Origin: a virus
Taxonomy: Duplodnaviria > Caudoviricetes
IMG/VR virus record: IMGVR_UViG_3300040985_001469
Location: 1-28,786 of that record
DNA: 28,786 nt
Reading direction: 5' to 3' (one strand)
Made by a program: the position numbers and the translations under genes. Below the pieces are notes generated by a model. It made no database searches. It saw nothing but the letters and a program-made list of their open reading frames with translations, and was not told the origin of the DNA. Each line of letters begins with the position of its first letter. Within the stretch, counting starts at the first letter, position 1. Shown here piece by piece: positions 1 to 28,443 of the stretch.

Positions 1-827
1 GGAGTAGGGGCGGGGGCGGGCGCGGGCGTCTCGACTACGGGAGCCCAGCGGGTCTTGAGGGAGCGTAGGCGGATGGCCTTAGCCTCGATAGCCGCAAGCG
101 GATTCTCGCTGCCAGCGGCCTTAGCCGCCATCACCGACTCAAGCAATTCGTTTTCATCGTACACGTCGCCGTAAGCGGCCTTGACGCGATCTAGTTCGGT
201 GTCTAGCCTAACCTGCTCCGCCTGGACCAGGGACTGGTACTCGTACGCACCCCTGGCCTCTTGCTCCCTGGCCTCGAAAGAGGCAAGCCTCTCCTCAAGC
301 TTCCTTACAACGGAAAGCGTATGGTCGGGCACCGGCTCTGGATCGCCGGCAGGGGGCTCAACGCCCAGCATGTCGTACAGCCACTTGTCGTCGCTGACCG
401 GCTCAGGTGCCGGCTCAGCGGCGGGGGCTGGCGCCGCTGGCGCTGCCGTCTGACCAATGGTCTTAGTAAGCGCCTCGGTAAGCTGGCTACCAAACCCATT
501 AAAGAGTTCAGCCATCTGCTCGGCGGTAATGCCAGCAGGCGCAGTAATCTGCACCTCTTGCGTCTCAACCTCATCCGACGCGGCTGCAACCGGCTCGGGA
601 GTCTCGACTGGCTCAGCGGCCACCTCTTCGGCGGGCTCAGCGGGAGCGGCCTCTACGGCCACCTCTTCGGCGGGCTCGTCCTCGACGACTTCAGCCTCAG
701 CCTCGGGCGCTGCCTCAACGACCTCTTCCTCTACTTCGACGCCAACGGCTTCGGACACCGAGCCTAGCGCAATTTCGCGCAGGCGGTCCTGAAGCTTGTC
801 GTCTTGCTCTTTAGTCAGTAGTGACAT
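1..827 (-). CDS. Acidic Ala/Glu/Pro-rich protein, probable head scaffolding protein (partial, runs off the window)
   Basis: Not in the ORF track. ATG at 827 (MSLLTKEQDDKLQDRLREIAL...) reads without a stop to position 1. Long E/A/P low-complexity region followed by a coiled-coil-like segment, directly downstream of TerL. Function inferred from composition and position. Confidence 0.6.
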   Translation of the reverse strand, partial: MSLLTKEQDDKLQDRLREIALGSVSEAVGVEVEEEVVEAAPEAEAEVVEDEPAEEVAVEAAPAEPAEEVAAEPVETPEPVAAASDEVETQEVQITAPAGITAEQMAELFNGFGSQLTEALTKTIGQTAAPAAPAPAAEPAPEPVSDDKWLYDMLGVEPPAGDPEPVPDHTLSVVRKLEERLASFEAREQEARGAYEYQSLVQAEQVRLDTELDRVKAAYGDVYDENELLESVMAAKAAGSENPLAAIEAKAIRLRSLKTRWAPVVETPAPAPAPT

Positions 828-883
828 ATTCAACTCGTAGAAAGGGGTCCACGATTGCAAATATGTCATAGATTTTTCAGTTA

Positions 884-899
884 TGCAAGTTCCGTGCCA
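884..899 (-). promoter_or_regulatory. Sigma-54-type -24/-12 promoter motif
   Basis: Minus strand reads TGGCACGGAACTTGCA, matching consensus TGGCACG-N4-TTGCW. Lies in the 74-bp gap upstream of the scaffold-like gene. Confidence 0.65.
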
Positions 900-901
900 C
901 T

Positions 902-2545
902 TTATCGACGCTTAGAGTATCTCTTGCGTCCCGGCACTGCCGACTTGATGTTCCTTATGGCCCGCCGCTGCTTGTGCTTAAGGTCCGTGTTGCACTCCTT
1001 TCCAAGCTGTGATTCGTACTCGAATTTTTCTTGAAGTGTGTGAACATACGTGTCTTCTTTCTTCATTCGCAGGCGTTTGGTTTGGGATCTGCCCATCCAT
1101 GCAAGTGCCGCAGCGAAGATCATGTCGTCATGCATTCCCTTGTCGTGCTCGGGGCGTCCAACGTCATTGTAGATGAACGTATTCATCTCTCGCATCAACC
1201 TAAACTCCACGGTTAGTTCGATGGTTTTCTTGGCAATTAGCTCACGAAACTCTTCGATAAGGATTGGGCGGCTCTGCGCTGTGGTCATCCAGCCGTGCAT
1301 TTGGCGCCACTGCTTTGCAACTTTGTCAAACTGCTCCCTGACATATAGCTGCACGAACTTCTTCTCAACCAACCAATCGAGGATTACGAGGCCGTGAGCG
1401 TTAACCTCAGGGACCACTAGGACGTCGTAATTTTTTGCCTCTTTGTGTACCAGCCTCTTGAACTGAGTGAGCGGGATCCTGTCATAGTATGTGCAGACGA
1501 TCTTCGGCTTATCCTTCTCAGTCACATCCATTACGCAGTATGCGGAATAGTCACCCTCCTCACTGGCCGTTCCGGTTGCGGGATCGACCCCCATCGTGTA
1601 GACGCGGAACCTCTTATGCTCCTCGTACTCGACGCGCCCATACTTGATATGGTCGTCAGTTGGGATGTTTTCATACGCGTAGGGGAAGACTGGATCGCCA
1701 CTTGAGACGAATGCTTCGATCGGGGAGTTTGGATACTCTTGCATGAGCGCTCGCCACGAGCCTCCGCACTTGGTGAACAGGACCTCTGCAATCCAGTTCT
1801 TCTGCTGCTCATCAAGGCCGTGATGCTCCACGTACCGATCAAGCTTCTCCTTCATGGTCTTTGGCATGTTGATCTTCGGGAACTTCTTCCGACGATTATC
1901 TGCGTCGATCGACCACGGAATGAAGATCTTCTTATAGGCGTTGTCGCCCTTCCAGTAGCCGTGCGCCTCGTTCATGCCGTTGGCAGTCGTCTCCATGACG
2001 ACCTCGGCCCCATCGCCAGCTACGGAGCCGGCAGCGTTGATGGTGGATTGGATGTGCTTGTAGAACGCGAACTCGGAGAAGTGGATGCTGCCGCGTGTGT
2101 CGCCACGGAACGAGGACTGAGCGGACTTACACGAGACCTTACCGCCATGCGTGAACTCCATCTCCGTGAGGGAGAACTTTACGGTAGGCACGGCCTTGCG
2201 GAACGCGTCTGGCAGATGTTCGTAGAATCTCTTGTAGATCCCGAACAGGCCCTGCGCGGTTGTGTCAATCTCGCTGACCACAAGCACGGAATGGTGCGGC
2301 CTGAAGAACGCCTTCCAGAAGAACTTGGCAGCAATGATGGTGGATAGGCCTTCCTTCCTAGCCTTGAGGACATATGTCCACACGCCATCATCGGTCTGCT
2401 CTAACCACTTCTCCTGACAAAAGTTCGGTGTTAGGGTGATTAGATTGCCATCTTTGTCGACAATCTTCAGCCAGTTACAGAACCTGTAGAAGTCCTTGGC
2501 GCAAGCTAGCAGTTCATCCTGTACCGCTGGGTGGATGCCCTTCAA
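902..2545 (-). CDS. terL: Terminase large subunit
   Basis: Walker A-like LKARKEGLST, Walker B-like IHFSEFAF, coupling motif ETTANG, and RNase H-like nuclease acidic motifs GVDPATG and HDDMIFAAALA. 547 aa. Confidence 0.93.
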   Translation of the reverse strand: MKGIHPAVQDELLACAKDFYRFCNWLKIVDKDGNLITLTPNFCQEKWLEQTDDGVWTYVLKARKEGLSTIIAAKFFWKAFFRPHHSVLVVSEIDTTAQGLFGIYKRFYEHLPDAFRKAVPTVKFSLTEMEFTHGGKVSCKSAQSSFRGDTRGSIHFSEFAFYKHIQSTINAAGSVAGDGAEVVMETTANGMNEAHGYWKGDNAYKKIFIPWSIDADNRRKKFPKINMPKTMKEKLDRYVEHHGLDEQQKNWIAEVLFTKCGGSWRALMQEYPNSPIEAFVSSGDPVFPYAYENIPTDDHIKYGRVEYEEHKRFRVYTMGVDPATGTASEEGDYSAYCVMDVTEKDKPKIVCTYYDRIPLTQFKRLVHKEAKNYDVLVVPEVNAHGLVILDWLVEKKFVQLYVREQFDKVAKQWRQMHGWMTTAQSRPILIEEFRELIAKKTIELTVEFRLMREMNTFIYNDVGRPEHDKGMHDDMIFAAALAWMGRSQTKRLRMKKEDTYVHTLQEKFEYESQLGKECNTDLKHKQRRAIRNIKSAVPGRKRYSKRR

Positions 2546-3126
2546 TCAACAGCGCCCCTTGCGGGCTTTTCGAGGTTGAGTTCCTCAAGCTGTGCGTGGA
2601 AAGCGTCGATCGCAGGGTCGCCGCCACCACCCATGATCGTCTCAGTCCTAGCCTTGACCAGTTCGATGTCCGCCTTTAGCTTCTCGATCTGAAGTCGCTC
2701 CAACTGCCTCTTCGCAGCGTATGAAGCCGTCTGCTTTCCGTTCCAGCAGAAGAGGTTCTGTAGCAGCCACTTGGCGCTGTTTGGGTCCACTTCGGCCCCA
2801 GCCATAACCAAGTCAGCAAGCTCACCCTCAAGCTTAGACCTTGACGCGTTGATGTTGTTGGCGAACACGAACTCTTTCTTGTGCTCAACCTCGGCATCGT
2901 CACGTTCACCGATCGTCATCCACGCATGGAAGATTCGGACAGGCAGGCGAATGCTACCGCACGCCGCGTCGATAGACCAGCCGCGCTCAAGCCTCTCGCA
3001 GATCGCCTTGCACATCTTTTCTGTAGGGCTGTATCCAGCCCTGGCAACGCTCTGCGCACCCGTCAACCTGCCCGCTCCCTTGGGGTTGGATGCGGTCTTA
3101 GGCTTGTCTTTAGCGCTTACGCCCAT
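2542..3126 (-). CDS. terS: Terminase small subunit (putative)
   Basis: Overlaps the terL start. N-terminal HTH-like segment (ICERLERGWSIDAACGSIRLPVRIFHAW), an AKWLLQ motif and a C-terminal coiled coil. Confidence 0.75.
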   Translation of the reverse strand: MGVSAKDKPKTASNPKGAGRLTGAQSVARAGYSPTEKMCKAICERLERGWSIDAACGSIRLPVRIFHAWMTIGERDDAEVEHKKEFVFANNINASRSKLEGELADLVMAGAEVDPNSAKWLLQNLFCWNGKQTASYAAKRQLERLQIEKLKADIELVKARTETIMGGGGDPAIDAFHAQLEELNLEKPARGAVD

Positions 3127-3638
3127 GCCTCAGCGAACTCCTCAATCACTTCCTTCCTCTTAGAGTTTGCGGTGTTCTCGTGGAACACGACAAATAGCGC
3201 CTCAACAAAGCTGGTACACAGCTTCATGGCGCTGACGATCCTTGGGTGGTTGAGATCTTCGTCACCAGTGAACTCGAATTCGCCGCTGGCGTCTACCATA
3301 ACCTTGAGCACCTTCTGGCACATCGAGTGCCTGGACTCCTTAAGGCGCCTAGGCAGAGACTCAAGGATGCTGAGGAGGACTGCCGCCTCAAGCGCAACAA
3401 TGGCGCAACACGACATGGCATGCAGCGGAACCTTCTCCTCAGGCACATCTGGGACGTTGATATCGTCGTCACCAACGTTGGTGTCATCAGGGTTTAGGAC
3501 CTTGTTGAGGAAGGCGGTTTGGTTGGTGATCTGCTGGAGGGACTCGTAGCACGCGGAGTCTACGGCGTTGGCCGTGGGCTCGCGCCCTGCGAGCGGCTTC
3601 TCCTGGGCGGCTACAGCCTCTTGCGTCGTGTCAGGCAT
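3117..3638 (-). CDS. Hypothetical protein
   Basis: 173-aa ORF overlapping both neighbours on the operon strand. Confidence 0.7.
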   Translation of the reverse strand: MPDTTQEAVAAQEKPLAGREPTANAVDSACYESLQQITNQTAFLNKVLNPDDTNVGDDDINVPDVPEEKVPLHAMSCCAIVALEAAVLLSILESLPRRLKESRHSMCQKVLKVMVDASGEFEFTGDEDLNHPRIVSAMKLCTSFVEALFVVFHENTANSKRKEVIEEFAEAWA

Positions 3639-3835
3639 TACAGGCCCCTCACGTTACGCAGAAAGGACATACCATACGCGGGGCCGAAGCGTAGGGACTC
3701 TTGATGCACATACCCTACGCAGCGGCGCAGGGCTTCATCCTTAGTCCAGTTACCCGACTTGGCGACTTGCTCTACCCAGGAATTCAGATGGGCTGGGAGC
3801 TTGGTCGTGCATGACTTTGGCTTGGTGGTTGTCAT
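3638..3835 (-). CDS. Small protein with a ribbon-helix-helix-like pattern
   Basis: From ATG 3835: KSCTTKLPAHLNSWVEQVAKSGNWTKDEALRRCV, a strand-helix-helix pattern typical of CopG/Arc-like proteins. Start codon uncertain. Confidence 0.45.
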   Translation of the reverse strand: MTTTKPKSCTTKLPAHLNSWVEQVAKSGNWTKDEALRRCVGYVHQESLRFGPAYGMSFLRNVRGL

Positions 3836-3869
3836 AAAGAAAAATCCCCATGTCGGAGACACGGGGATT
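3836..3869 (-). terminator. Intrinsic terminator
   Basis: Minus strand AATCCCCGTGTC-TCC-GACATGGGGATT (one G-U pair) followed by TTTCTTT. Confidence 0.7.
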
Positions 3870-3916
3870 GGTCCAGAACCCAAACGTGTCATATGGACAC
3901 GAATCTAGCACAGGAG

Positions 3917-4261
3917 TTAGGTTAAATCAAATACTGGCACGCTTCTTGCTTCGGCCGCCCTCATACAACCCCTAGTCCCTCGACCGCCTGGGAATGCCAC
4001 CACAGCGTCTGGCTTGAAGTCGTCTAGCATGAATCCGTTTCGGATAGGTCCGGCTGAGTTTCCGTATCTTCCCCAGTTGGCTGGGTAAGGCTTAACAGGT
4101 ACAGCATTCTCTCTAGCCCAAAGTCCACATAGGTAGTCTGCCCCGCTTGCTGCTCCGTGGGCAAGCTCTTCGATTCCGGATCGTATATGAAGTTCTGTAA
4201 GTGCCACATCAATGAATTCTGAGTCTGCGTAGTCTCTTCCACCAGTTACAACTATCCTCAT
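3917..4261 (-). CDS. DUF2493 / YspA-like SLOG family protein
   Basis: Motifs VVTGGRDY, HGAASGAD, ANWGRYGNSAGPIRN and VAFPGGRGT. Confidence 0.85.
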   Translation of the reverse strand: MRIVVTGGRDYADSEFIDVALTELHIRSGIEELAHGAASGADYLCGLWARENAVPVKPYPANWGRYGNSAGPIRNGFMLDDFKPDAVVAFPGGRGTRGCMRAAEARSVPVFDLT

Positions 4262-4471
4262 CTACAGCATGTCGCTCTTGACATACCTCATGCCTGGGGG
4301 CCTATGAACGCCACCGCCATTAATGCTAATCAAAAGCTCACCATCCAACATCACCTCAATCCCATCATCCCTCTGAGCAATACCAAACAAGCCCATGTCG
4401 GTCTTGATTCCGATGCCCAGGAACACATCTTCAAGGATGATGTCGCCGCACTCGTCTACGCTAATCTTCAT
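4262..4471 (-). CDS. Hypothetical protein
   Basis: 69-aa ORF abutting its neighbours. Confidence 0.6.
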   Translation of the reverse strand: MKISVDECGDIILEDVFLGIGIKTDMGLFGIAQRDDGIEVMLDGELLISINGGGVHRPPGMRYVKSDML

Positions 4472-4643
4472 TACGCCTCACGTACACATTGTTAAGCCAC
4501 GCTTGATATCCCTTCCAGTCGCTGTCCGACATGCTCTTGAATAGCTGCCTAGCCTTTGCGTCATCCGAGAAAACGCCCTCTCCGGTGACTGCGTTAGTCC
4601 ACTTCATGTAAGCCCTCGCCGCCTTTGCCTTTACGCCTCTCAT
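4461..4643 (-). CDS. Hypothetical protein
   Basis: Likely starts at MRGVKAKAAR, coupled to the upstream stop with an RBS-like GAGGT. Confidence 0.55.
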   Translation of the reverse strand: MRGVKAKAARAYMKWTNAVTGEGVFSDDAKARQLFKSMSDSDWKGYQAWLNNVYVRRNED

Positions 4644-4897
4644 ACTACCTCGTAAGTCTTTAGAAATACTGACTCTTTGCACGGATACACTTCACCCTCG
4701 ACCCCGCAGATGATGTAGTCGCCAACGTCCGCCAGCATCCTCCCCTCAAGCGTCTCACACATCACGCGACTGAACTCCCCGGTGTTGCGGAAGATCTTCG
4801 TCACTCCGTCAAACTCTTCGCAGATATGGTCTGCGCAAGATTCGGTTCCATCAAATTGAATGGCGTCGATTTCGACTGGTAGCTTCCTATACCTCAT
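4640..4897 (-). CDS. Conserved small phage protein (YRKxPVxIxA...GDYII...YPCK...F..TYE family)
   Basis: Recognisable widespread phage family signature; function unknown. Confidence 0.75.
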   Translation of the reverse strand: MRYRKLPVEIDAIQFDGTESCADHICEEFDGVTKIFRNTGEFSRVMCETLEGRMLADVGDYIICGVEGEVYPCKESVFLKTYEVV

Positions 4898-5430
4898 GAG
4901 GCAAACCTCTTAGCCGCTTCCCTGGTGACGTCGCTAAAATCCACATCCTCGTCATCGTCGATCCTCTCACTCACCCCCAAGAGGGAGTTGCCCTCGCCGT
5001 ACCATGCAGCCTTAGACTCCACCACATCGGTACACTCGATGGGAATCTCCACGATTTCGCGGAGCTTCTCCGGAACATACGCCGCTGTGGTGGTCAGGAT
5101 TTCATACAGCCTGTGGTCTTTCTGCATTCCGATGAACCGCATAGCCTCTGCCTCGCCAGCAAACACGTTGTGCAGTAGGTGCCCGTTGCACATCAGCCTG
5201 CACACTGGCCTGACGACCTTTTCGACCATGGACTTTTCCACGATCTTGACGTGGCGGATCGGGCCCCACTGAACGTAGTCGCCTGGAGGGGCGGCGTCGA
5301 TTCCGCTTCTGTGGTACTCAATCAAGCCATTGGCACCCACCCAAAACGGACCAACTGCAATCTCCTCATCGACAGTTAGATCGCTTTCGTAGTCGCGATC
5401 TGCGACGGTGTACTCCAACCTATACGACAT
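4894..5430 (-). CDS. Hypothetical protein
   Basis: ORF on the operon strand; likely start MSYRLEY. Confidence 0.6.
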   Translation of the reverse strand: MSYRLEYTVADRDYESDLTVDEEIAVGPFWVGANGLIEYHRSGIDAAPPGDYVQWGPIRHVKIVEKSMVEKVVRPVCRLMCNGHLLHNVFAGEAEAMRFIGMQKDHRLYEILTTTAAYVPEKLREIVEIPIECTDVVESKAAWYGEGNSLLGVSERIDDDEDVDFSDVTREAAKRFAS

Positions 5431-5653
5431 ACGAGTTATCCCCCCAATTCGCATCGAGCAGTCGGTATCCAGTATCCGTGCTCAGGACCAGCCCGAAGAC
5501 GCTGTCGCCACCGACCAACCCCTTAACCTCCACGATTGTGAGGGAGCCTGTTAGGTCTGTCTGCTCGACCACTCTGCCCCAACCCCTCTCCGACGGAACT
5601 CCGTCTGCTGTCAACAGGTTATGCAATTGCTCGATGATTACGTCGTCAAACAC
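5420..5653 (-). CDS. Hypothetical protein
   Basis: 77-aa ORF overlapping the NAMPT stop, with a GGAGGTGG RBS. Confidence 0.6.
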   Translation of the reverse strand: MFDDVIIEQLHNLLTADGVPSERGWGRVVEQTDLTGSLTIVEVKGLVGGDSVFGLVLSTDTGYRLLDANWGDNSYVV

Positions 5654-7008
5654 GCCACCTCCCTAATCTCTTCAAGTGTTTGGTCCACTAGCAACTCTCC
5701 ATCACGGAACACCGCAACGAGAACATCCACGCCAGTGCCGTGCGGAACGGTATCATACGTGACGCCCTTTGTCAGGGTCAAACGACCCCTCTTCGAATTC
5801 TTTGTCGGGTCGGTCTTCGGCCTCTTGTACACGTCCCTCCACTCGCCTCCAACCAGCGCAGCGGAGCACTTGAACGCAAACTTCTGAGTGTCCCTGTCGA
5901 GCTTCTGTAGCAGCCCGCCCCCCATGCCGAAGGCGATGTTGTCGATGCTCCAGCCGTCTAGGTACATCGCGTTGATGACCTTCTCAATGGTCTCAGGCGT
6001 GCATCCGTCCCCCTGAATGACGCGAACGTTGTCGTGCAACATAGTGAATCCCTTCACGTTGTTGTGGCCGCCGAATGCGTGGTACAGGCGCTCCATTACG
6101 TCGATTACAGTAGAGACGATCTCTCCGCTGTCAGGGCGTACGACCAGAACTCCGTCTCGCTCAAGAACCTCATCCCTAAGTGTCTCACCCCAGATCTTAC
6201 TGCAAGCATTCTCGATATCGTACGAATCGCTAACGCACGCAACCAGTCCTGTCGGGTACTTCTCCAGCATGTTTCTGTATGCGTCTGCCTCACCCTCTTC
6301 GCCCCACGATGTCATGGTCGAATGTTCAGACGCTGGAATGGAACAGCCAGCCATCTCTTCACCGTAGAACTTCCGCCCACACACGATTGCGGCCAGCGTG
6401 TCAGAACCCTTGAAGTTCACCAGATGGGCAAGCCCGCCGATGCCGGCCGACTCTACGGACGACACGCCACGGAACCCGAAGTCGTGCAACTTGAAGTCCA
6501 GGCCTCCCACATCGCCAGTCTGAATCAGCCCAGCCCTAATGATGTCTCGGACGTGGCTGCTGATGGTGGCCACTGTCGACGGGTACCACACCTGAACAAG
6601 TAGGGTTTCCAGGTAGTTGGGGAGCCAGTAGCATGCGGGGTCGGTGTTTTCGATGGTCATCAGGACGTTGCCAGTAGGGATCTTGCTACCCTCTGGAACC
6701 GCCTTGATCTCGACCGGGAGTCGGCCGTCGTGCTCGTTGAGGATGCGCTGCCACCCCTCTCGATTGAACACGCCAGGACCCATGTGGAGATCCGCGATCT
6801 CATTGGCCTCGTCGATCTTCTCCTGGGTCACGACCTGACCCATCAGGTACTTCTTGATGAAGTATTGCAGGCCGAAGAACATAGTCTCCGGATACTCTGC
6901 GCCAACACGGCTCTCAAAGTACGAGTAGACCTTCTCGGTGCCTGGAGGATATTGATGGTAGTGGGACAGCTTGTAGCTGTCTGTAAGCAACATGATGTTG
7001 TCAGTCAT
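5638..7008 (-). CDS. nadV: Nicotinamide phosphoribosyltransferase (NAMPT)
   Basis: Motifs LLTDSYKLSH, YSYFESR, KLHDFGFRGVSS, SIPASEHS, VSDSYD, VVRPDSG, VIQGDG, FGMGGGLLQKLDRDTQKFAFKCS and KNSKRGRL. Confidence 0.95.
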   Translation of the reverse strand: MTDNIMLLTDSYKLSHYHQYPPGTEKVYSYFESRVGAEYPETMFFGLQYFIKKYLMGQVVTQEKIDEANEIADLHMGPGVFNREGWQRILNEHDGRLPVEIKAVPEGSKIPTGNVLMTIENTDPACYWLPNYLETLLVQVWYPSTVATISSHVRDIIRAGLIQTGDVGGLDFKLHDFGFRGVSSVESAGIGGLAHLVNFKGSDTLAAIVCGRKFYGEEMAGCSIPASEHSTMTSWGEEGEADAYRNMLEKYPTGLVACVSDSYDIENACSKIWGETLRDEVLERDGVLVVRPDSGEIVSTVIDVMERLYHAFGGHNNVKGFTMLHDNVRVIQGDGCTPETIEKVINAMYLDGWSIDNIAFGMGGGLLQKLDRDTQKFAFKCSAALVGGEWRDVYKRPKTDPTKNSKRGRLTLTKGVTYDTVPHGTGVDVLVAVFRDGELLVDQTLEEIREVACLTT

Positions 7009-7012
7009 CGTC

Positions 7013-7924
7013 TTACCCCTTTTTAAGGTGGGCTAGCGCTAGCTCAAGGATGGGCTCATGAAGCTCCATCAGGTCGAGCGTATCAATCTCATCAAGACCG
7101 ACCCAGCGTACCTCGCTAAGGTCGTCGCCCGCGATGGCGGGCCCCCACAGATACTCCATGCAAAACACGGAAGTCATGATGCAGTCCACCTCATTGGCGT
7201 ACCGCCAGTCGTTGATCTGGGTCGAGCCGAGGTATTCCACCCTGCCTGCATCGACGCCGGTCTCCTCCCTAAGTTCACGTTTGGCTGCCGCTTCAAGCGA
7301 TTTGTCGCTCGGGTCTACGAACCCGCCAGGAAACCTCCACTTACCAATGGGGTCGTTAGGCTTACGGCCGACCAAGATGCGCTCACCATCAGTGAGGATC
7401 ATGTCGACGGTTGGGTAGGCGACTGGGTGCTTGTTGAATGCAGCGTACGTCACCCCGCGCCTGAAGTCTTCAGTCGAGCGAACGTCGTTGGACGCAAGCT
7501 TGCGAGCCTCAGTGGCAGAGACGTTACGGCTGGGCGCAAGCTCTACGGTGGCGTGCTTGCCGCTGTAGTGAGGTATGAATCCATCCCTTGAACCGTACAG
7601 GACAACCCTCCCGATACCACCGAAGGCGTCTCGGACCTTCCCGTCGACCTCTCTAGACCAATCATCGTCAGATGGACGATCGTACAGAGGCATGATGGAT
7701 ACGTCAGGGAAGGCATCGCGGATCATGAGCATGCGCGTGTGATAGTCTAGCGGGTTGTTGCGCGTACACATCACGCTTGGCTTGCATCCCACCAGGATGA
7801 GAACCTTAGGATGGCTGGCGGCTACAGTCTCGATCAGGTCGAGATGGCCACCGTGTAGCGACGGTGCTTGGAAGCGTCCGACGATGACGCCGATCTCTGC
7901 GTCTGGAGTTACTTGGTTGAGCAT
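7013..7924 (-). CDS. nadM: Bifunctional NMN adenylyltransferase / Nudix (ADP-ribose pyrophosphatase-like) hydrolase
   Basis: N-terminal GRFQ..LHGGH (HxGH), NPLDY..R and SATEAR motifs; C-terminal Nudix box GGFVDPSDKSLEAAAKRELREETG. Confidence 0.92.
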   Translation of the reverse strand: MLNQVTPDAEIGVIVGRFQAPSLHGGHLDLIETVAASHPKVLILVGCKPSVMCTRNNPLDYHTRMLMIRDAFPDVSIMPLYDRPSDDDWSREVDGKVRDAFGGIGRVVLYGSRDGFIPHYSGKHATVELAPSRNVSATEARKLASNDVRSTEDFRRGVTYAAFNKHPVAYPTVDMILTDGERILVGRKPNDPIGKWRFPGGFVDPSDKSLEAAAKRELREETGVDAGRVEYLGSTQINDWRYANEVDCIMTSVFCMEYLWGPAIAGDDLSEVRWVGLDEIDTLDLMELHEPILELALAHLKKG

Positions 7925-9606
7925 GCGTGTTCCCCTAGGATTTCGGTGAGATGTGCATACATCGTAAGTGCATCATTTGTCAAGGGGTTCCACTCACCAC
8001 CCGACGCGTCTGACATCTTCTTCCACTGAACCATCCCAAACCCGGTGGAGAACGTGTACACGTATGCGCCGCCCAGCACCGAAACAATGTTGTCAGGCGT
8101 AATCTTCGGGATGCTGTACGACTGAGGGTGCTCGTCAGAGAAGACGATAATCACTCTATCCGCACCGCCTCGCCAGTCGATAGCCCACTCCCATGATGGG
8201 GGGTCGGATTCTGCAACGCTCCAGTTGAGTGGTATTGGGCCGATTAGGCAGAGGTAGATCGCATCTAAGATCATCTCTGTGCCGCCAGAGATTCCGCCGA
8301 CGAGAGAGCCGAAAGCCGTCCAGAAGTCAGTGAATCCGACTAGGTTGGACACGAGTTTCAAATTCTCACCTGGGGTAAACGGCGCCACGGCCACGCCCCA
8401 CTTGATGATGTCCTCGTCCTTGTACTGGTTCGCGAACATGGACAGCGCACCCATTACGGCGTTGATCTCCATATCCATAGAGCCAGACCAGTCGACGATG
8501 AACAGGATGTCAGTTGGGTTTAGCTCTTCCCCGAAGTCAGTATCACCATCGCAGTCGTCATCGACCCCGTTGCAGACTTCCTCAGTAGGCACAACCTGAC
8601 CCGCGCATGTGGACCATGAGCCCTCAAGGCACATTGTCGTTCCCGCAACGCACTCGCCAACACCATCGGTGCCATCAGGACCGCCATAGCAGTCACCTGT
8701 TATGTTTTCGTCGATATAGGAATCGCAGTCGTCGTCGAAATTGTTGCACTGCTCAGGCATGACCGTGCCGATCTCCGCGTCGCATGACGCTAGGTTCCCC
8801 TCGTGCCAACAGAAGGCCCAGCATTCTGTGAATGTGAAATCTGGCAGGCAGGTTCTATAGCCCTGGCCACACGTCAGCGGCTGCTCAGAACATGGGATGA
8901 GAACGCCAACCATGCTGGCCGTGCACCCACAATCCAGCCCCTCATCAACCAACCCATCACAGTCGTTGTCTATGAAGTCACACTCCTCGGCAACAGGCTG
9001 TGGCGCGTCGCAGAGCCACTGCCCGCTGTAGCACCCCTCAAGGCCCAGCCCGCATGCTGACTCGCATGGGCGGTAAAGGTCTTCGTCGATGGTGCCATCG
9101 CAGTCGTCGTCCAACCCATTGCAGATCTCTGGCGGCTCGTGCCCGCATGCGCCGCACAGGTTCTGCTGCCCCTCATCGACCTCGCCATCACAGTCGTTGT
9201 CCTTGTAGTCGCAAATCTCTTCCGTGCATTCAGTCTCACACTTGCCCTCCATGAGCCACCCCTTAGAGCAGTACACGTTAAGCTCGCCAGGAAGGCCATC
9301 CTCAGTGGTGCATGGCTTGCTTCCGAGGTTGGGGATGGCCGGGTTGCAGTCGAACTTCTGCTCGCACTCACCCTGCTCGACGATCACCCCAGTACAGGTG
9401 TCGATGACCATCTGCCGCTGCCATAGCTCATGCCACGGCGGGCACCACCAGAGTTGAGTTTGGACACATCCGTCGTCAGATGTTTCAAGAACCACGTCGG
9501 TGACGACGGCGACGTCTGGGATAGCGTCAGGTTCAGTCGCGGGGATTGGTTGTGGGGATGCTGAGCAGGCGGCCATGAGGAGAGCCACTATAAGCGATCG
9601 GATCAC
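7909..9606 (-). CDS. Cys-rich repeat lipoprotein with a C-terminal vWA domain
   Basis: Lipobox LLMAAC; five E-x-C-(D/N)-x2-D-(N/D)-D-C-D-x3-D repeats of the MopE-like/myxobacterial type; vWA MIDAS motif DWSGS...GGTE...FSDE. Confidence 0.85.
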   Translation of the reverse strand: MIRSLIVALLMAACSASPQPIPATEPDAIPDVAVVTDVVLETSDDGCVQTQLWWCPPWHELWQRQMVIDTCTGVIVEQGECEQKFDCNPAIPNLGSKPCTTEDGLPGELNVYCSKGWLMEGKCETECTEEICDYKDNDCDGEVDEGQQNLCGACGHEPPEICNGLDDDCDGTIDEDLYRPCESACGLGLEGCYSGQWLCDAPQPVAEECDFIDNDCDGLVDEGLDCGCTASMVGVLIPCSEQPLTCGQGYRTCLPDFTFTECWAFCWHEGNLASCDAEIGTVMPEQCNNFDDDCDSYIDENITGDCYGGPDGTDGVGECVAGTTMCLEGSWSTCAGQVVPTEEVCNGVDDDCDGDTDFGEELNPTDILFIVDWSGSMDMEINAVMGALSMFANQYKDEDIIKWGVAVAPFTPGENLKLVSNLVGFTDFWTAFGSLVGGISGGTEMILDAIYLCLIGPIPLNWSVAESDPPSWEWAIDWRGGADRVIIVFSDEHPQSYSIPKITPDNIVSVLGGAYVYTFSTGFGMVQWKKMSDASGGEWNPLTNDALTMYAHLTEILGEHACSTK

Positions 9607-17228: not shown

Positions 17229-17613
17229 CCTCAACCCCGCTCAAGACCGCAATCAAATCATTCACGTTTTCCTTACCATCCACACACACGCTCACAAACC
17301 TGTCCTGTTGGTCGTCGTTCCACACGTACACGCCCATCGTGATGGTCAGCCCATCTCGGAAGATGCAGAACATGTAGCCGTCCTCCCACTTGGCCCAGGA
17401 GCCTGGATCCGCGATCGATGCCTCAAGGATGGAGGCGGTATCTAGCGCCTCGAATCGGTACTCCCCGAAGGCCCCGTCAGTGCATGAGGCAGTGACGAGG
17501 GTTTCTTGTTTATCGGATTCGATGGTGAATAGACATTCGGGTGACTGGTACTCTATTAGGGGCATAGAGCACCTGGGGATGAGGGGCATAGAGCACCTGT
17601 GGGTGAGGGGCAT
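17221..17613 (-). CDS. Hypothetical protein with a tandemly repeated N-terminus
   Basis: MPLTHRCS-MPLIPRCS-MPLIEY; three in-frame candidate starts. Confidence 0.6.
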   Translation of the reverse strand: MPLTHRCSMPLIPRCSMPLIEYQSPECLFTIESDKQETLVTASCTDGAFGEYRFEALDTASILEASIADPGSWAKWEDGYMFCIFRDGLTITMGVYVWNDDQQDRFVSVCVDGKENVNDLIAVLSGVEDE

Positions 17614-18092
17614 GTCACCTCCTCCATCTTCACGGCACCACCGCCGTCTAGAGTGATGGCCTCCACATCACCGTACGGTGTGCGGTACAAGAACAGCCCC
17701 TCCTCGTGAAAGACCAGCACGCCAGTCTTCTCACTCCAGAACCGATCCCAGTCACTCATAAACACGCACCCGACCCAACACCCATCAACGTAAGCGTCCA
17801 CGTTCTGGCGGACCTTAAACGACACACCCATGACCCTCTGAGGCGTCATCTTAGGCACCAACCCGGCCCACCAGTCCGACACGTTGAACTCAGTGGTCCT
17901 CAGGAACTTAGCCAACTCTACGTCCTCGCCAGACCAAGTAGACAGACCATCAACATCGACATCTACCCAACAGTCGCTAACCTCCCAGTTGACGGTACGG
18001 CCGAACACAGTCGCGGAGTAATGGTTGTTGGCGATGCACTTCACGCTTTCGCCGACCAGGAACTCCGGATCTAGTAGTGGATGCTTACTCAT
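17556..18092 (-). CDS. Hypothetical protein, LLDPEF family member 4
   Basis: Starts MSKHPLLDPEFL. Confidence 0.7.
   Translation of the reverse strand: MSKHPLLDPEFLVGESVKCIANNHYSATVFGRTVNWEVSDCWVDVDVDGLSTWSGEDVELAKFLRTTEFNVSDWWAGLVPKMTPQRVMGVSFKVRQNVDAYVDGCWVGCVFMSDWDRFWSEKTGVLVFHEEGLFLYRTPYGDVEAITLDGGGAVKMEEVTCPSPTGALCPSSPGALCP
17558..17613. repeat. 24-bp tandem repeat, 2.3 copies
   Basis: AGGGGCATAGAGCACCTGGGGATG / AGGGGCATAGAGCACCTGTGGGTG / AGGGGCAT. Confidence 0.9.
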
Positions 18093-18363
18093 GCCCAAAC
18101 CCCTCACTCAATGACTCCCACTTAGCCTTTGCCTCATCCTTCTCTACCTGCTCCTTCGGCGAATACATCAACGACTTCATCAACTCCTTATCCGTAACAT
18201 TGCACACATTAATTCCATCCAGAGCTACGGTTATGTAACCAGAGTGGTCCCCATGTAGGTAGCTCCACTGAACGTTCTCGTAGGTGTACACGATCCTGTG
18301 GTATGGACACGACATTGGAGTCTCCAACTCACGCACGTACTCTGGATCTAGCAGCTTATGCAT
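18085..18363 (-). CDS. Hypothetical protein, LLDPEF family member 3
   Basis: Starts MHKLLDPEYV after AAGGAG. Confidence 0.7.
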   Translation of the reverse strand: MHKLLDPEYVRELETPMSCPYHRIVYTYENVQWSYLHGDHSGYITVALDGINVCNVTDKELMKSLMYSPKEQVEKDEAKAKWESLSEGFGHE

Positions 18364-18841
18364 CCAACCACTCCTTGAACTTCGAAATGTCAAACATGTG
18401 CGTCCCGTTGTTCTCGACGTCGATGAGCATGATCTCTGAGCCGACGACTACTGAGGAGATTTGTGGGGTGGATCGGTAGATGAGATGCCTGTGTCGATCA
18501 AAGATTAGGTGCGCACGCCCAACGAAGAGCGAATGCGTGCTAGGGCTGCTTAGCCACAGGCCGCCTTCGTCGTGCCAGAACGAAAACGGCCCAACCTCAA
18601 AAATGCTCGGGATGACCTCACCGACCTCCTCATGGCCCTCATACCACTCGATCAACTCCCCAGTAAGCTCTTCGCTCTTCCGTGACAGGACGTCGAACAG
18701 GTCTGCCGGCAGGTACTCAAGCACCACGCCATCCACCGTAAGCTTTCCATCCGCGTATGAAAGGATTCTTCCGTTGTAGGAGATGAGGGGGTATCGGTCC
18801 ATGTGCTTCTGGACGAATTTTGGGTTTAGTAGTTGGTTCAC
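18356..18841 (-). CDS. Hypothetical protein, LLDPEF family member 2
   Basis: GTG start, (M)NQLLNPKFV, after GAGGTG. Confidence 0.7.
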   Translation of the reverse strand: MNQLLNPKFVQKHMDRYPLISYNGRILSYADGKLTVDGVVLEYLPADLFDVLSRKSEELTGELIEWYEGHEEVGEVIPSIFEVGPFSFWHDEGGLWLSSPSTHSLFVGRAHLIFDRHRHLIYRSTPQISSVVVGSEIMLIDVENNGTHMFDISKFKEWLDA

Positions 18842-19116
18842 GCATCCACCTCGTAACTGTTGATAACCTGTAGGTCTGGACGCAGGCTCTCCCATATGTC
18901 CACCAGCTTGCCGTAAAGCCCTTCCCCAACAAAGAATTCCTTGCTGTCGTTGCCAATGCATACTCGCACCTGTAGCGTTGGTGGCGCGCCGGGAAGCGGC
19001 AAAACCCTTACATCGCCCTCTGTGCGTCGGTAGTGGATCTCCATGCCTCCCCAGTTCTTTGTGGCCCTGAGGCCTTCCTGGTCTAGGATGAATTGTGGGT
19101 TGATGAGTTGGTTCAT
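18838..19116 (-). CDS. Hypothetical protein, LLDPEF family member 1
   Basis: Starts MNQLINPQFI after AAGGAG; first gene of the leftward operon. Confidence 0.7.
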   Translation of the reverse strand: MNQLINPQFILDQEGLRATKNWGGMEIHYRRTEGDVRVLPLPGAPPTLQVRVCIGNDSKEFFVGEGLYGKLVDIWESLRPDLQVINSYEVDA

Positions 19117-19138
19117 TGTTCTCCTTGGTTGTGGGATG

Positions 19139-19274: not shown

Positions 19275-19478
19275 TGGCACGAACTATGCATTAGCACGAT
19301 CCGTGCCAGTTACACACAACCCATACTGTACAAACTTTCAGTGTTGACAGACTCTTTCTTTTGAGATCCAAACAAAACGCTTGACACCCTACCGAACACG
19401 CGAACCACTGCACACCCGTACAGTACCCATGCAATCACCATGCCAGAAAGCTATTTTCAGAAATCAAAGATCGTGCCA
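19275..19478. promoter_or_regulatory. Cluster of sigma-54-like GG-N10-GC motifs
   Basis: Plus strand TGGCACGAACTATGCA 19275-19290; minus strand TGGCACGGATCGTGCT 19293-19308, TGGCATGGTGATTGCA 19430-19445, and degenerate TGGCACGATCTTTGAT 19463-19478. Confidence 0.5.
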
Positions 19479-19643: not shown

Positions 19644-19654
19644 TGCTCTTTACA
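19644..19654 (+). promoter_or_regulatory. boxA-like antitermination element
   Basis: TGCTCTTTACA versus rrn boxA TGCTCTTTAACA, preceded by GC-rich hairpins. Confidence 0.55.
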
Positions 19655-19687
19655 CTTCAAACGCGAAACACAATCCAAGGGATTACT

Positions 19688-20101
19688 ATGTCATACACTG
19701 ACAAGGAGGTCCGGGATCTCGCGCGCCGTCTGGGCGTGACGAAGGATCGTGTGACGATTGCTGGCGCGTCTGACACTGTGTCAGACGTCAACCGCTACCG
19801 CCGGGAGACCCGGAGGCAGTCATACGCATCCACAACGTTTGCTGTACGCAGCACCGTGATTCGTCGCCGCAGCGGAGCGGAGACCCCGATCGATTCGTTC
19901 AATGTCAAGGTAAAGCAACGTGTGTTGGGAACCAAGCCACCGCGCGTTGCGGCGGAGCCTAAGCCCCGATCCGGGGGCCCGCGGATCCGCAAGTGTGCAA
20001 TCCCAGGTTGCGCAACCTGCGCAGTCTTCGGCGGACACGACGCAGCCGAGGATCGCCCGGAGCGTAAGCGCAAGGCACACGTTCACGGCTACCGTAGCTA
20101 G
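19688..20101 (+). CDS. Highly basic protein with a C-terminal C-x4-C-x2-C-x5-H motif
   Basis: ATG 19688 after AAGGGA; Arg/Lys-rich; CAIPGCATCAVFGGH. Confidence 0.7.
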   Translation: MSYTDKEVRDLARRLGVTKDRVTIAGASDTVSDVNRYRRETRRQSYASTTFAVRSTVIRRRSGAETPIDSFNVKVKQRVLGTKPPRVAAEPKPRSGGPRIRKCAIPGCATCAVFGGHDAAEDRPERKRKAHVHGYRS

Positions 20102-20107
20102 CGACAA

Positions 20108-20132
20108 GCGGCCCCCGTTCGCGGGGGCCGCT
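20108..20132 (+). terminator. GC-rich hairpin after the ORF (terminator-like, without an immediate U tract)
   Basis: GCGGCCCCCG-TTCG-CGGGGGCCGC. Confidence 0.5.
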
Positions 20133-20170
20133 ACCCTTCGATCTTTCTTTCGCGTTTGCGCTTTTATCCC

Positions 20171-20239
20171 TTGACCTCTGAATCATGGATGCTATGGTCC
20201 AGAGGTCAGCGGGTAACTGCTGAGCTTGATCCTTGAAAA
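20171..20239 (+). promoter_or_regulatory. Sigma-70-type promoter, hairpin and boxA-like site
   Basis: TTGACC-N16-TATGGT with extended TG; hairpin CAGCGG/CTGCTG; TGATCCTTGAAAA at 20227-20239. Confidence 0.5.
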
Positions 20240-20262
20240 GCCCAACCGACGATCGGATAGAG

Positions 20263-20713
20263 GTCTCGTTCTTACGTTGCCGAATAAATCCGGAACACCT
20301 TGCCCGATGCAAGGTTTAGTTGGCTTGGGCGTTCCATTAAAGGAACATAATCTCGCGAGTCCTACGAACAAGGGACACTGACCGAGACAGGGCGTGGCGA
20401 CAGACAATCCCATAGTGGATCTGGCGTTTAAGCCTGGAGAGGGACTAACGGACCGAATATAGCATTTCGGGTGATGACTGTTAGTCGGGAATGCCATTCC
20501 CAGATCATGCAACTAAACGGCCAGTTGGCAGGTTACGCATAGGGCGCCAAAAGGCGCTGAGGTCACCCCCGCAGCCTACCAAGTAGGCATAGGGAACCAC
20601 AGCAAAGCCTGGGCGATTCCACAGCAGTTAGCTAACAGGGCAGTGGACGAAGCATGTGACGACTAACGACCCCTCTATGGGCTCTCATCGCGAGGTGAGA
20701 GGGTAAACGAGAC
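20263..20713 (+). ncRNA. Candidate large structured non-coding RNA (about 450 nt), family unassigned
   Basis: No credible ORF on the + strand; closing stem GTCTCGTT/AACGAGAC, nested long-range stems and many hairpins (see findings). Confidence 0.65.
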
Positions 20714-20824
20714 GCAGGGGAGAGGGACGCACAAGGGTTCCCTCTCCCCGAACCCTTCGGGGCTTCCGAAGGTTGACCCTACCTCTAACCAGACTGCCAT
20801 TCCGGCGGCTGGGGAGAGTCTACG

Positions 20825-21025
20825 ATGGATGAGTTGTTTCGCGCATTGGCTGAGCGATTCGAGCAGAAGACGGCGCGAGCCCGGTCCTGCATGGCGCAGG
20901 GTGAGTACGAGTCGGCAAAGGAGTATAGCGACATCGCGGCACAGTGTGCCTCGTTGCTGTGCGCTCTGGAGTACGACGGCGCTGAGGCTCAGGCGACTGG
21001 GCTGTTGGAGTTGCTCGACGACTAG
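20825..21025 (+). CDS. Small helical protein enclosed by a 21-bp RNA stem
   Basis: GGGGAG RBS; 66 aa; flanking arms at 20774-20794 and 21056-21076. Confidence 0.65.
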   Translation: MDELFRALAERFEQKTARARSCMAQGEYESAKEYSDIAAQCASLLCALEYDGAEAQATGLLELLDD

Positions 21026-21140
21026 GGACCAAGCTCCCGACCAACGTGGTCGGGGGTCTGGTTAGGGGTAGGGTTACACGATTTGAATGTCAATCTTCCT
21101 GGTGGGCGTCAATCCAGACGTTCAATACCGGGAGGGTAAG

Positions 21141-21464
21141 ATGGATTACGATTGGAATGGCACGATCGAAGCTCTGGAGTCTACCATCGGCACTCTCCGA
21201 TGCCTGAATCGCGAGTTGGCAGGTCAGGTGGATGATGCACAGGCTAGCCTGCTCGATGCCAGGAGCTACCAGAAGCACGATGCGGAGATCGAGCGTCGCT
21301 GTGAGGCTGAGCGTAAGGTGCTCGATGGTGGGGACGACGCTCGGTGGGCTGCTGACGCGTACAGGGGTGTGGTCGCCAAGTTGCTGAAGGGTGAGAGCCC
21401 GACGATGGATGAGATCTCGTTCGTTAGCTCGATGCTGGGCGACGTGATCGAGACGCTGAGCTAG
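21141..21464 (+). CDS. Coiled-coil protein enclosed by a 22-bp RNA stem
   Basis: GGAGGG RBS before MDYDWNG; flanking arms at 21088-21109 and 21489-21510. Confidence 0.7.
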   Translation: MDYDWNGTIEALESTIGTLRCLNRELAGQVDDAQASLLDARSYQKHDAEIERRCEAERKVLDGGDDARWAADAYRGVVAKLLKGESPTMDEISFVSSMLGDVIETLS

Positions 21465-21675
21465 TATCCCGGGTGTCCACTTAGGTGGGCGCCCACCAGG
21501 GAGATTGACAGTAAATATTTTGAGAATGTCGATTTTTGGGTATGAAAAAATGCACTCAAAAATGGGCACGCAGTGCCACAATCGACAAGCAACGTGCTAG
21601 GTACCATCCCGAGAATGCCGGGATCGTGTCAATCTTGACACGCTACGCTCAAACGTTGCCACCTAACATTCGCGA

Positions 21676-21935
21676 GTGTTAGTTGGGGCTGTGTCCCCTG
21701 GATAACCTATGGGAAACCATAGTGGGGCGAGCTACCATGCAAGCTGCCGGTATACTCCGGATCGCGCTACAACCGCGAGCAGCGTATACCCTAAAACTTG
21801 CGCCAACAAGCCGGGAAACGGGCTGATGCATTAACGGCAGTGATACAAAGGCCAGCACGTTAGCCGCGCGCTGGTACAAAATCACACGCACTTGGCAGTG
21901 CGGCGGGATATTAGATCTCGGCAGCCCCCAAACAC
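21676..21935 (+). ncRNA. Candidate structured non-coding RNA (about 250 nt), family unassigned
   Basis: Closing stem GGGGCTGT/GCAGCCCC extended by GTGTT/AACAC; several internal hairpins including CTATGG-GAAA-CCATAG. Confidence 0.6.
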
Positions 21936-22092
21936 AGGCGTTGGCGTCATTCGGCGCCATTTCATCGATGGTGCAACAATGCAAGGAGAGTGAAACCCGC
22001 CGCGCGAGCAAAGCGGCTATGATTAAAGCAACGCACGCTGCAACGTGCGCATTCATAATATCCCTGGGCATGGAATGAAACTGCCCACCTAA

Positions 22093-22137
22093 TACCGCGG
22101 TAGTCCGATAGCCTGGGTTCGATCCCCGGGGCGGTAA
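22093..22137 (+). ncRNA. Minimal tRNA-like element (acceptor stem and T arm only)
   Basis: TACCGC/GCGGTA stem and CTGGG-TTCGATC-CCCGG T arm, with only about 14 nt between, so no anticodon arm. Confidence 0.45.
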
Positions 22138-22172
22138 CAGCGCATATGTCAGCCGAAACGCAAAGCGCCACA

Positions 22173-22183
22173 TGCTCTTTAAC
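22173..22183 (+). promoter_or_regulatory. boxA-like antitermination element
   Basis: TGCTCTTTAAC is an 11/11 match to the start of the rrn boxA; lies upstream of tRNA-Leu. Confidence 0.6.
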
Positions 22184-22289
22184 TAAGTGCCGCGGGAAAG
22201 CCCAACGCAAGCTGGGGTCAAGTGGGCGATCGATTGGTGGGCAGGCGCCAACACCCTGGGCATGGTGGGAAACTGCCCCTCCCTACTGA

Positions 22290-22372
22290 GCCAACGTGGC
22301 GGAATGGTATACGCGGCGGATTCAAAATCCGCTGACCTTCGGGTCGTGAGGGTTCGAATCCCTCGGTTGGTA
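22290..22372 (+). tRNA. tRNA-Leu(CAA)
   Basis: GCGGA-TTCAAAA-TCCGC anticodon arm, long variable arm GACC-TTCG-GGTC, GAGGG-TTCGAAT-CCCTC T arm and A73. G7-G66 mismatch; CCA not encoded. Confidence 0.9.
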
Positions 22373-22393
22373 CTTACATTCGCGGGAGGATGA

Positions 22394-28198: not shown

Positions 28199-28228
28199 AC
28201 CGTGTGCAGCGCAACACAAAACGTCAAT

Positions 28229-28443
28229 GTAAAGCGCCCTTTACAAAGTAAAGCAGCCTTTACCCCTAAGTAAAGCCCCCTTTACCTCAAAGTAAAGAGC
28301 CCTTTACCAAAGTAAAGCAGCCTTTACCAAAACAGTAAAGCCCCTTTTACTTCAGACCACAAAATGTAAAGCCCCTTTTACTTGGGGCCGCCCAAAGTAA
28401 AGCGCCTTTTACTTGAGCACCCCTCAAGTAAAGCCACCTTTAC
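28229..28443. repeat. Array of nine 16-bp palindromes GTAAAG-N4-(C/T)TTTAC
   Basis: Copies start at 28229, 28248, 28270, 28292, 28312, 28335, 28366, 28397 and 28428. Confidence 0.95.

Follow-up and report, generated by a model that had tools for sequence, protein, structure and literature searches.

Long RNA helices around single early genes of an uncultured tailed phage: candidate translation switches gated by transcript completion

Three early genes and their flanking helices

The stretch of DNA studied here, referred to as the window, is an entire virus record of 28,786 bases (IMGVR_UViG_3300040985_001469, positions 1 to 28,786; Duplodnaviria, Caudoviricetes). Its genes point leftward up to ~19,100 and rightward from ~19,690, and the sign of the GC skew flips at the same place. 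The rightward arm is of early type, and it opens with three open reading frames (ORFs) on the plus strand, ORF1 (19688–20101, 137 amino acids), ORF2 (20825–21025, 66 amino acids) and ORF3 (21141–21464, 107 amino acids), each flanked by complementary sequences, or arms, and together with them called a cassette. An initial annotation of this DNA had described three neighbouring ORFs, each packaged inside its own long stem. The description holds well for cassettes 2 and 3, which have strong helices and are separated by only 11 nucleotides (nt), and less well for cassette 1, which is weaker and separated from cassette 2 by ~615 nt of folded RNA that contains no ORF but does contain a promoter-like site.

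In cassette 2, 20774–20795 pairs with 21055–21076 over 22 base pairs (bp), three of them G–U, whereas in cassette 3, 21088–21110 pairs with 21488–21510 over 23 bp, including two G–U pairs; the arms are located where they had been annotated, each of the two helices being one terminal pair longer than claimed. When perfect helices with partners 60–1500 nt apart were ranked on both strands, these two came first and second in the contig (scores 57 and 51, the next being 38), and both exceeded everything obtained when the 3-kb region was shuffled 150 times with its dinucleotides preserved (top score 40, longest helix 19 bp). Their pair probabilities in a 1.36-kb fold are 0.96 (cassette 2) and 0.94 (cassette 3). 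The corresponding flank-to-flank duplexes have energies of −66.4 and −61.1 kcal/mol, a stability reached by none of the 3422 mismatched pairings among the flanks of 59 genes. In a three-by-three matrix of arms, each pairs with its own partner only, and arms of different cassettes are mutually unrelated (best local score 3–5). The final helices of cassettes 2 and 3 end 29–30 nt before the AUG and begin 23–29 nt past the stop codon, outside ribosome footprints. The arms of these two cassettes are a real feature.

Departures from a perfect inverted repeat had been read as a sign of selection on RNA. All five are indeed G–U pairs on the coding strand, but just two (20784 and 21097) lie deep inside a helix, so that the argument is weak on its own. 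The local hairpin annotated next to every 3′ arm is present in cassette 1 (11 bp, 20107–20132, just inside the arm; p = 0.99) and in cassette 2 (8 bp, 21036–21054, abutting the arm; p = 0.95), whereas cassette 3, when folded, has just 3 bp there. Ends of an insertion sequence or of a miniature inverted-repeat transposable element were rejected, as they had been in the annotation, because the arms are unrelated among cassettes and the G–U pairs fall on one strand.

By codon use, ORF2 and ORF3 look like real genes (0.14 and 0.18 against the phage codon pattern); ORF1 is weaker (0.00), yet scores best of its six frames. The RNA of the ORF1 body is itself structured (z-score −3.75), whereas those of ORF2 (−0.24) and ORF3 (+0.38) are not. 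All three products are charged orphans of 66–137 amino acids for which no family match was found; that of ORF1 is basic, and that of ORF3 is predicted to be all-helical at low confidence (predicted local distance difference test score 60.6), its model giving no fold match at E ≤ 0.001. No usable match to the ORFs came from the ESM Atlas, and searches of 5.8 billion proteins, together with a HMMER search of 1.84 billion, returned the window's own proteins only, the second member of the ORF1 cluster being the same frame with a longer start. Among IMG/VR records, none of 12 candidates for ORF3 and no locus for ORF1 proved homologous, and terL and the gene at 22394 likewise led to no homologous locus; the single ORF2 match (1 of 56 candidates) is a chance one, inside a long unrelated gene. 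A metagenome scan with ORF3 was negative (0 of 597), pattern searches built from the folded RNA described below and from a boxA motif plus arm returned nothing or four chance-length matches without flanking similarity, and one seawater DNA run, perhaps of the very sample from which the record came, contained six short near-identical pieces, none spanning an arm. In GenBank phages, the best 20 of 67 matches were to tRNA-Leu alone, and the large terminase subunit TerL is at most ~25% identical to its counterparts (best 20 of 747 matches). Homology of ORF1 to lambda N was rejected (best E 3.5); N proteins diverge, so that ORF1 may still have a role analogous to that of N. Nothing supported the idea that the ORFs were inserted into an intron or giant RNA of a known kind.

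A predicted lock on the Shine–Dalgarno sequence

Bacterial translation normally begins on nascent RNA, a step with which folding predicts that the arms of cassettes 2 and 3 interfere. Besides its 3′ arm, each 5′ arm is complementary to a second partner that the annotation had overlooked, its own gene's Shine–Dalgarno (SD) region. In the nascent fold of cassette 2, 20783–20798 pairs as an anti-SD with 20804–20818 over 13 bp, thereby covering the SD of ORF2 (20811–20816); in that of cassette 3, 21089–21110 pairs with 21117–21142 over 21 bp, six of them G–U, burying the SD of ORF3 (21131–21135) and part of the AUG. In either cassette the 3′ arm imitates this part of the leader, matches the 5′ arm better and is predicted to displace it; the SDs of both genes are predicted to be closed off while the RNA is nascent and accessible once the cassette is complete.

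The cost of opening the SD, that is, the energy needed to unpair it in equilibrium folds at three transcript lengths (early, to the stop codon and complete), follows this course. It amounts to 10.5, 11.2 and 2.7 kcal/mol for cassette 2 and to 9.7, 10.8 and 3.4 kcal/mol for cassette 3, and with upstream context included it falls from 9.3 to 2.7 and from 10.7 to 3.4 kcal/mol, respectively. Twelve other early genes have costs of 0.6–5.6. Opening is predicted only once ~16–19 nt of the 3′ arm have been transcribed. For unlocking on completion, ORF3 (+7.4) comes first and ORF2 (+5.6) second among 32 window genes, which were chosen by the analyst, measure up to ~520 nt and include one whose start was mis-set. 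Deleting the 5′ arm lowers the cost to 0.3 (cassette 2) and 4.1 (cassette 3), whereas shuffled arms lock as strongly as the observed ones in 3 and 1 of 300 cases and random stretches of the window in 2 and 1 of 300, respectively; the lock therefore needs the actual sequence of the arm.

Several details of the folds agree with such an exchange of partners. The nascent hairpins are more stable on the plus strand than on the other (−20.5 versus −14.1 for cassette 2, −22.8 versus −10.3 for cassette 3). In cassette 3, the two partners of the 5′ arm differ at 8 of 21 paired positions, in each case by a G–U wobble, an observation that is supportive only, since the positions were chosen for pairing. 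In locked cassette 2, the outer 9 nt of the 5′ arm (20774–20782) are unpaired and would thus offer a toehold to the last-made bases of the 3′ arm; cassette 3 has ~5 weakly paired nt in this place. After a simulated central cut, the SD remains open (4.3 and 3.4 for cassettes 2 and 3).

Cassette 1 has the opposite predicted logic. Its 5′ arm (19658–19681) and 3′ arm (20134–20158) form an interrupted helix of 11 + 3 + 5 bp, weaker than those of the other two, in which 19658–19668 pairs with 20148–20158 and, beyond a 4 × 5 internal loop, AUC pairs with GAU and, beyond a 1 × 1 loop, AAGGG with CCCUU (predicted p = 0.98 and 0.95); the last 5 bp join the SD (19677–19681) to an anti-SD within the 3′ arm (20134–20138). 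The trimmed flanks do better than 1999 of 2000 shuffles of the 3′ flank and equal or surpass all other windows of 5751 except two, but in the 65-nt flank test cassette 1 is at background (−27.7, the mean being −30.1), with the minus strand (−28.3) more stably folded than the plus strand (−21.9). The z-score of the whole cassette, −5.3, is partly due to the structured ORF body. The SD costs 4.5 (early), 3.6 (to the stop codon) and 6.6 kcal/mol (complete) to open, which places cassette 1 last of the 32 genes (−3.5); ORF1 is accordingly predicted to be open while nascent and shut on completion. The annotation had suggested that completion of the transcript might time translation, and had pointed to 5′–3′ pairing in the hok and aapA messages: folding supports control by completion, but in cassettes 2 and 3 with a predicted sign (on) opposite to that of hok and aapA, cassette 1 alone being predicted to turn off.

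An rRNA-operon-like early region and parallels in T5-like phages

The cassettes are embedded in a region with several elements that recall a ribosomal RNA (rRNA) operon. Pattern scans of the plus strand point to two putative promoters, P1 (19553–19580; TTGATC, 16 nt, TG-extended TACATT) and P2 (20171–20198, TG-extended); downstream of each come a hairpin and then a motif resembling boxA. Downstream of P1 this motif is at 19644–19655, its G 13 nt before the 5′ arm of cassette 1, which has the geometry of rrn operons, boxA and then an arm. TGCTCTTTA occurs at 19644 and again at 22173, in the boxA motif found by sequence scan before tRNA-Leu (22173–22184), and when the 3-kb region was shuffled 2000 times, no shuffle contained two copies; the latter motif has one mismatch to the gammaproteobacterial consensus GYTCTTTAANA (PMC5725501). 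Translation of a gene can be repressed by a boxA in the 5′ leader ahead of it (PMC5725501), which bears on ORF1, 32 nt from its boxA. Downstream of P2 come a leader hairpin (20206–20223) and a loose, weak boxA-like motif (20228–20239). A 23-bp interrupted local hairpin over P2 (20164–20216; z-score −4.7), which can form only in read-through RNA from P1, competes with this leader hairpin.

Two ORF-free stretches of 530–555 nt on the same strand are candidate large non-coding RNAs. The first (20240–20772) has a z-score of −4.5, calculated for 20195–20775, and no Rfam match, and its positions 20264–20272 could pair with 20707–20714; the second (21724–22279) is closed by long-range helices (p = 0.78–0.83), its overall z-score being only −1.9. 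No homologues of either were found. Apart from four tRNAs, three of which follow the cassettes, Rfam revealed nothing credible in the window, even when relaxed to E up to 5. The second stretch carries two copies of an H-type pseudoknot of ~28 nt, one (22059–22086) 6 nt before a minihelix (22093–22139) and the other (22251–22278) 11 nt before tRNA-Leu(CAA) (22290–22373). The minihelix consists of a T-arm and an acceptor-like stem ending in ACA, without D and anticodon arms; its energy is not significant, and it could be a processing mark. The pseudoknot core, CCUGGRCAYG-N5-AAACUGYCC, is estimated to be present in ~710 IMG/VR stretches. In 119 distinct copies, the unconstrained positions of stem 1 are paired in 326 of 357 cells (shuffle maximum 210), and the variable pair of stem 2 is Watson–Crick in 127 of 131; Rfam matched it in none of 20 loci. 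It often stands just before tRNAs or gene starts, a tRNA being present in 8 of 11 chosen loci. Taken together, the surroundings fit a long precursor RNA subject to antitermination, folding and cutting, and by this analogy the cassettes would sit in an early region organized like an rRNA operon.

Because no homologue of the locus was found, its layout was tested in other phages. In T5, a 28-bp helix with two G–U pairs on the transcribed strand (and only 16 bp on the other) surrounds T5.008, and a 20-bp helix surrounds T5.010; the T5.008 unit consists of a perfect boxA, the 5′ arm, an SD, a 67-codon ORF and the 3′ arm. The distance from the start of boxA to the helix is 10 nt in T5 and 12 nt before the 26-bp 16S stalk of Escherichia coli rrnB, compared with 13 nt in cassette 1. 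Among T5 and 10 relatives, fetched from 40 of 460 records, the combination of a perfect boxA and a gene-enclosing helix is present in 11 of 11. The inner 14 columns are paired in every one, changes on both sides being mainly those of two related Sugarlandviruses, and of 10 helices compared between strands, 7 extend further on the transcribed one, 2 have the same length on both and 1 is shorter there. On completion, the SD opening cost drops in 10 of 11, by 1.0–5.1 kcal/mol. This covariation, together with the helix length, the G–U pairs and the spacing of boxA, bears out the RNA-level pairing and the analogy to rRNA stalks made in the annotation. The first-step-transfer region of T5 contains, on the minus strand, further 20-bp helices (6289–6270/5301–5282 and 10455–10436/9896–9877), one of which encloses hegG.

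No perfect helix of at least 20 bp with at most three G–U pairs was found in the early stretches of T7, SPO1, phiEco32, phiCbK and N4, so that one of six model early regions, that of T5, has a gene-enclosing helix. Perfect boxA in T7 follows promoter A3 (813, plus strand), and four boxA-like copies are present in a non-coding early stretch of phiEco32 (28620–29274, minus strand). Of the 68 loci that had been retrieved from IMG/VR because of the pseudoknot, two showed a strong helix on the sense strand and none on the antisense strand. In one of the two, from an uncultured phage that is unrelated (L094), 23 bp surround the first early ORF, with the SD opening cost falling from 9.4 to 5.1, and a sigma-54-like site before this cassette; the other (L039) has a 17-bp helix that spans several genes and may be due to chance.

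The record as a whole encodes terminase subunits, a NAMPT-like enzyme, a NadM/Nudix protein, SSB, a DEDD exonuclease and ArdA. The NAMPT-like and NadM/Nudix genes lie side by side (5638–7924, minus strand) as a phage pair for nicotinamide adenine dinucleotide salvage. Next to them (7909–9606, minus strand) is the gene of a 565-residue protein that begins like a lipoprotein, contains several Cu-binding_MopE repeats and matches VWA weakly. Four consecutive genes at 17556–19117 (minus strand) have an N-terminal motif, LLxPxF/Y-V/I/L, in common and probably are a paralogue array. In the divergent control region, a cluster of sigma-54-like sites is found at 19275 (plus strand) and at 19308, 19445 and 19478 (minus strand), with further sites at 899 (minus) and 3935 (plus). 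The motif TTGACAC(C/G)CTAC is repeated at 19381 and 21635 without a good −10 element and resembles TTGACAC(C/G)CTAG of T5-like promoters. Finally, about nine palindromic units GTAAAG...CTTTAC, spaced by 20–40 nt, form an origin-like array at 28221–28443.

Interpretation and comparison with known systems

For cassettes 2 and 3 we propose, as a reading with an even chance of being right, that they are completion-gated translation switches that double as stalks of the RNase III type. The 5′ arm would first fold onto its own SD region and block ribosomes; once the whole gene has been transcribed, the 3′ arm, a better match, would displace the SD region, starting from the toehold at the outer end of the 5′ arm, and the site would open. 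The gene would end up looped out of a 22–23-bp stalk, likely to be cut by host RNase III. Left untranslated while nascent, the ORF would be open to attack by Rho, so that antitermination motifs of the boxA type would make sense in this transcript, and its expression would be conditional on processive, complete transcription and hence presumably on Nus factors. Cutting would release single-gene mRNAs with paired ends and a longer life. The excision of stabilized units by RNase III that the annotation suggested is plausible; as for its translation timer, the delay at usual elongation rates would be seconds, which would make the device a gate rather than a timer of infection.

A number of observations weigh against this proposal. 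The switch follows wholly from equilibrium folding predictions, and the complete state is favoured over the locked one by just 5.1 (cassette 2) and 8.4 kcal/mol (cassette 3), so that displacement could be slow. The switch was noticed after looking at the folds, which makes the p-values post hoc. Protein, metagenome and pattern searches found no homologue of any cassette. As for boxA, the copy at 19644 has two mismatches to the gammaproteobacterial consensus, a third copy of TGCTCTTTA at 805 is away from the early operon, and no boxA directly precedes cassettes 2 and 3, the nearest being the loose motif ~550 nt upstream. Among the T5-like phages, the SD shift is small, phiR2-01 has none and the best helix of Gostya9 is on the other strand.

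The strongest competing explanation, possible but rather doubtful in our view, is that the helices are purely processing and stabilizing stalks, cut by RNase III to leave end-paired single-gene mRNAs, the pairing of the arm with the SD being incidental. In length and energy (22–23 bp, −39 and −45 kcal/mol) the helices of cassettes 2 and 3 do match the 16S stalk of rrnB (26 bp, −43), the boxA of cassette 1 is spaced as in rrnB and T5, cassettes 1 and 2 have a hairpin next to the 3′ arm, and the SD shift of T5-like phages is weak. Cassette 3 also has CAAUCU/AGAUUG in common with the rrnB stalk, presumably beside its cut site; this match is weak, because CAATCT occurs nine times in the window. 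Pure stalks, however, leave unexplained both the locking of the own SD beyond 297–299 of 300 controls and the rank of ORF3 and ORF2 among the 32 genes. An insulating function, whereby the helices would keep the ORFs from disturbing the folding of adjoining non-coding RNAs and tRNAs in an rRNA-like precursor, seems unlikely. It would account for the alternation of cassettes with the ORF-free folded domains and tRNAs, and in rRNA folding, leader–trailer helices have a role that does not depend on RNase III (PMC10250234); yet the T5 and L094 helices lack large flanking non-coding domains in the stretches examined, and insulation does not predict locking of the SD.

Inverted repeats acting in DNA, be it as ends of a small mobile cassette, as cruciforms or as protein sites, are a decidedly poorer explanation. 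The T5 counterparts have been published as the DNA inverted repeats IRA/IRA′, of unknown function (bioRxiv 10.1101/866236), early regions swap genes, and the 3′ arm of T5-like phages overlaps a promoter-like TTGACA-17-TAAGAT. Against this stand the mutually unrelated arms and the strand-specific G–U pairs of the cassettes, the longer helices on the transcribed strand of most T5-like phages and their changes on both sides, as well as the absence of a transposase or integrase among the window proteins scanned. Ligation of excised units into circular mRNAs, an idea of the annotation for which nothing was found in support, is the least credible: paired ends might well bring termini together, but searches of the window turned up no ligase, ribozyme or intron family, and RNase III leaves 5′-phosphate/3′-OH ends with 2-nt overhangs, for which we know of no in vivo route to circularization in bacteria. 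The initial interpretation is thus partly supported.

If the gating of cassettes 2 and 3 is real, it would be a cis-acting checkpoint for complete transcription, opposite in sign to the toxin-mRNA cases, would explain why rRNA-type boxA precedes protein genes in phage early regions, and would give an RNA function to T5 repeats found in print, in the portion of the source available, only as DNA repeats. Owing to the counterpart in T5, the idea can be tested directly in E. coli, and the design is compact enough to be of use in synthetic biology. A broader generalization, which we offer tentatively and with somewhat less than even confidence, is that many phages, T5 included, gate single early genes by natural toehold strand-displacement switches that uncouple translation from transcription in boxA/Nus-protected, rRNA-like transcripts, such that protein is made only from complete, antiterminated messages, which are then cut out as end-tied units.

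Among the closest known systems are the rrn leader–trailer stalks, as in E. coli rrnB (PMC10250234), in which a long helix likewise joins the flanks of one product, and tRNAs and a second boxA follow downstream; boxA stands 10–13 nt before the 5′ strand in rrnB, T5 and cassette 1, in the last with two mismatches. RNase III substrates typically comprise two helical turns (PMC1540722), and E. coli has paired cut sites up to 1080 nt apart (PMC6212723); the helices of cassettes 2 and 3 are continuous over two turns, whereas cassette 1 has only 11 + 3 + 5 bp. Internal loops can limit the enzyme to one nick (PMC1540722), a behaviour that would suit the 4 × 5 loop of cassette 1. In contrast to the rrn stalks, the cassettes enclose mRNA (Rfam finds no rRNA within them, ORFs being enclosed instead), their 5′ arm doubles as an anti-SD, and cassettes 2 and 3 are not directly preceded by boxA. 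T7 early mRNA, whose R1.1 loop we presume to resemble that of cassette 1, is a phage early polycistronic RNA that RNase III cuts into single-gene messages. The T7 sites, however, are local hairpins, of the same type as 20164–20216, and positions 1–8000 of T7 contain no gene-enclosing perfect helix longer than 15 bp.

In aapA3, metastable SD-sequestering hairpins of the nascent RNA give way to a 5′–3′ long-distance interaction, the full-length message being off and needing 3′ trimming (PMC6733600). The predicted replacement of a nascent SD-sequestering hairpin by 5′–3′ pairing in cassettes 2 and 3 resembles aapA3 and hok, but the end states are opposite, the full-length RNA being inert there and predicted to be on here; only cassette 1 is predicted to be inert. 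A small membrane or hydrophobic toxin is not evident among the ORFs, nor is an antisense antitoxin, looked for only by promoter scan. In Staphylococcus aureus icaR, a pyrimidine motif in the 3′ untranslated region pairs with the SD of the same message, blocks initiation and makes an RNase III substrate (PMC3868564); this short pairing matches cassette 1 and is opposite in sign to cassettes 2 and 3. Intervening sequences of 23S rRNA carry an S23p ORF in a stem that is excised by RNase III and rapidly degraded, apparently untranslated (PMC4990558). They are alike in shape only, since the ORFs of the cassettes are not in rRNA, are not S23p and have strong SDs and coding-like codons.

The T5 repeats IRA/IRA′ around T5.008 have no sequence homology to the cassettes and a weaker SD shift, of the same sign, and agree with them in the order of boxA, helix, SD, ORF and 3′ arm. 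The cassettes thus belong to none of the rrn stalks, aapA3/hok messages, icaR or S23p intervening sequences, and no description of gene-enclosing stalks or completion-triggered activation in phage mRNA was found in the literature searched, which mostly excluded subscription journals, in line with the annotation, whose author knew of no phage system with this repeated layout. Collectively, the end-paired early genes are a real feature, and the switch that we propose for two of them is assembled from known parts, with a counterpart in a model phage.

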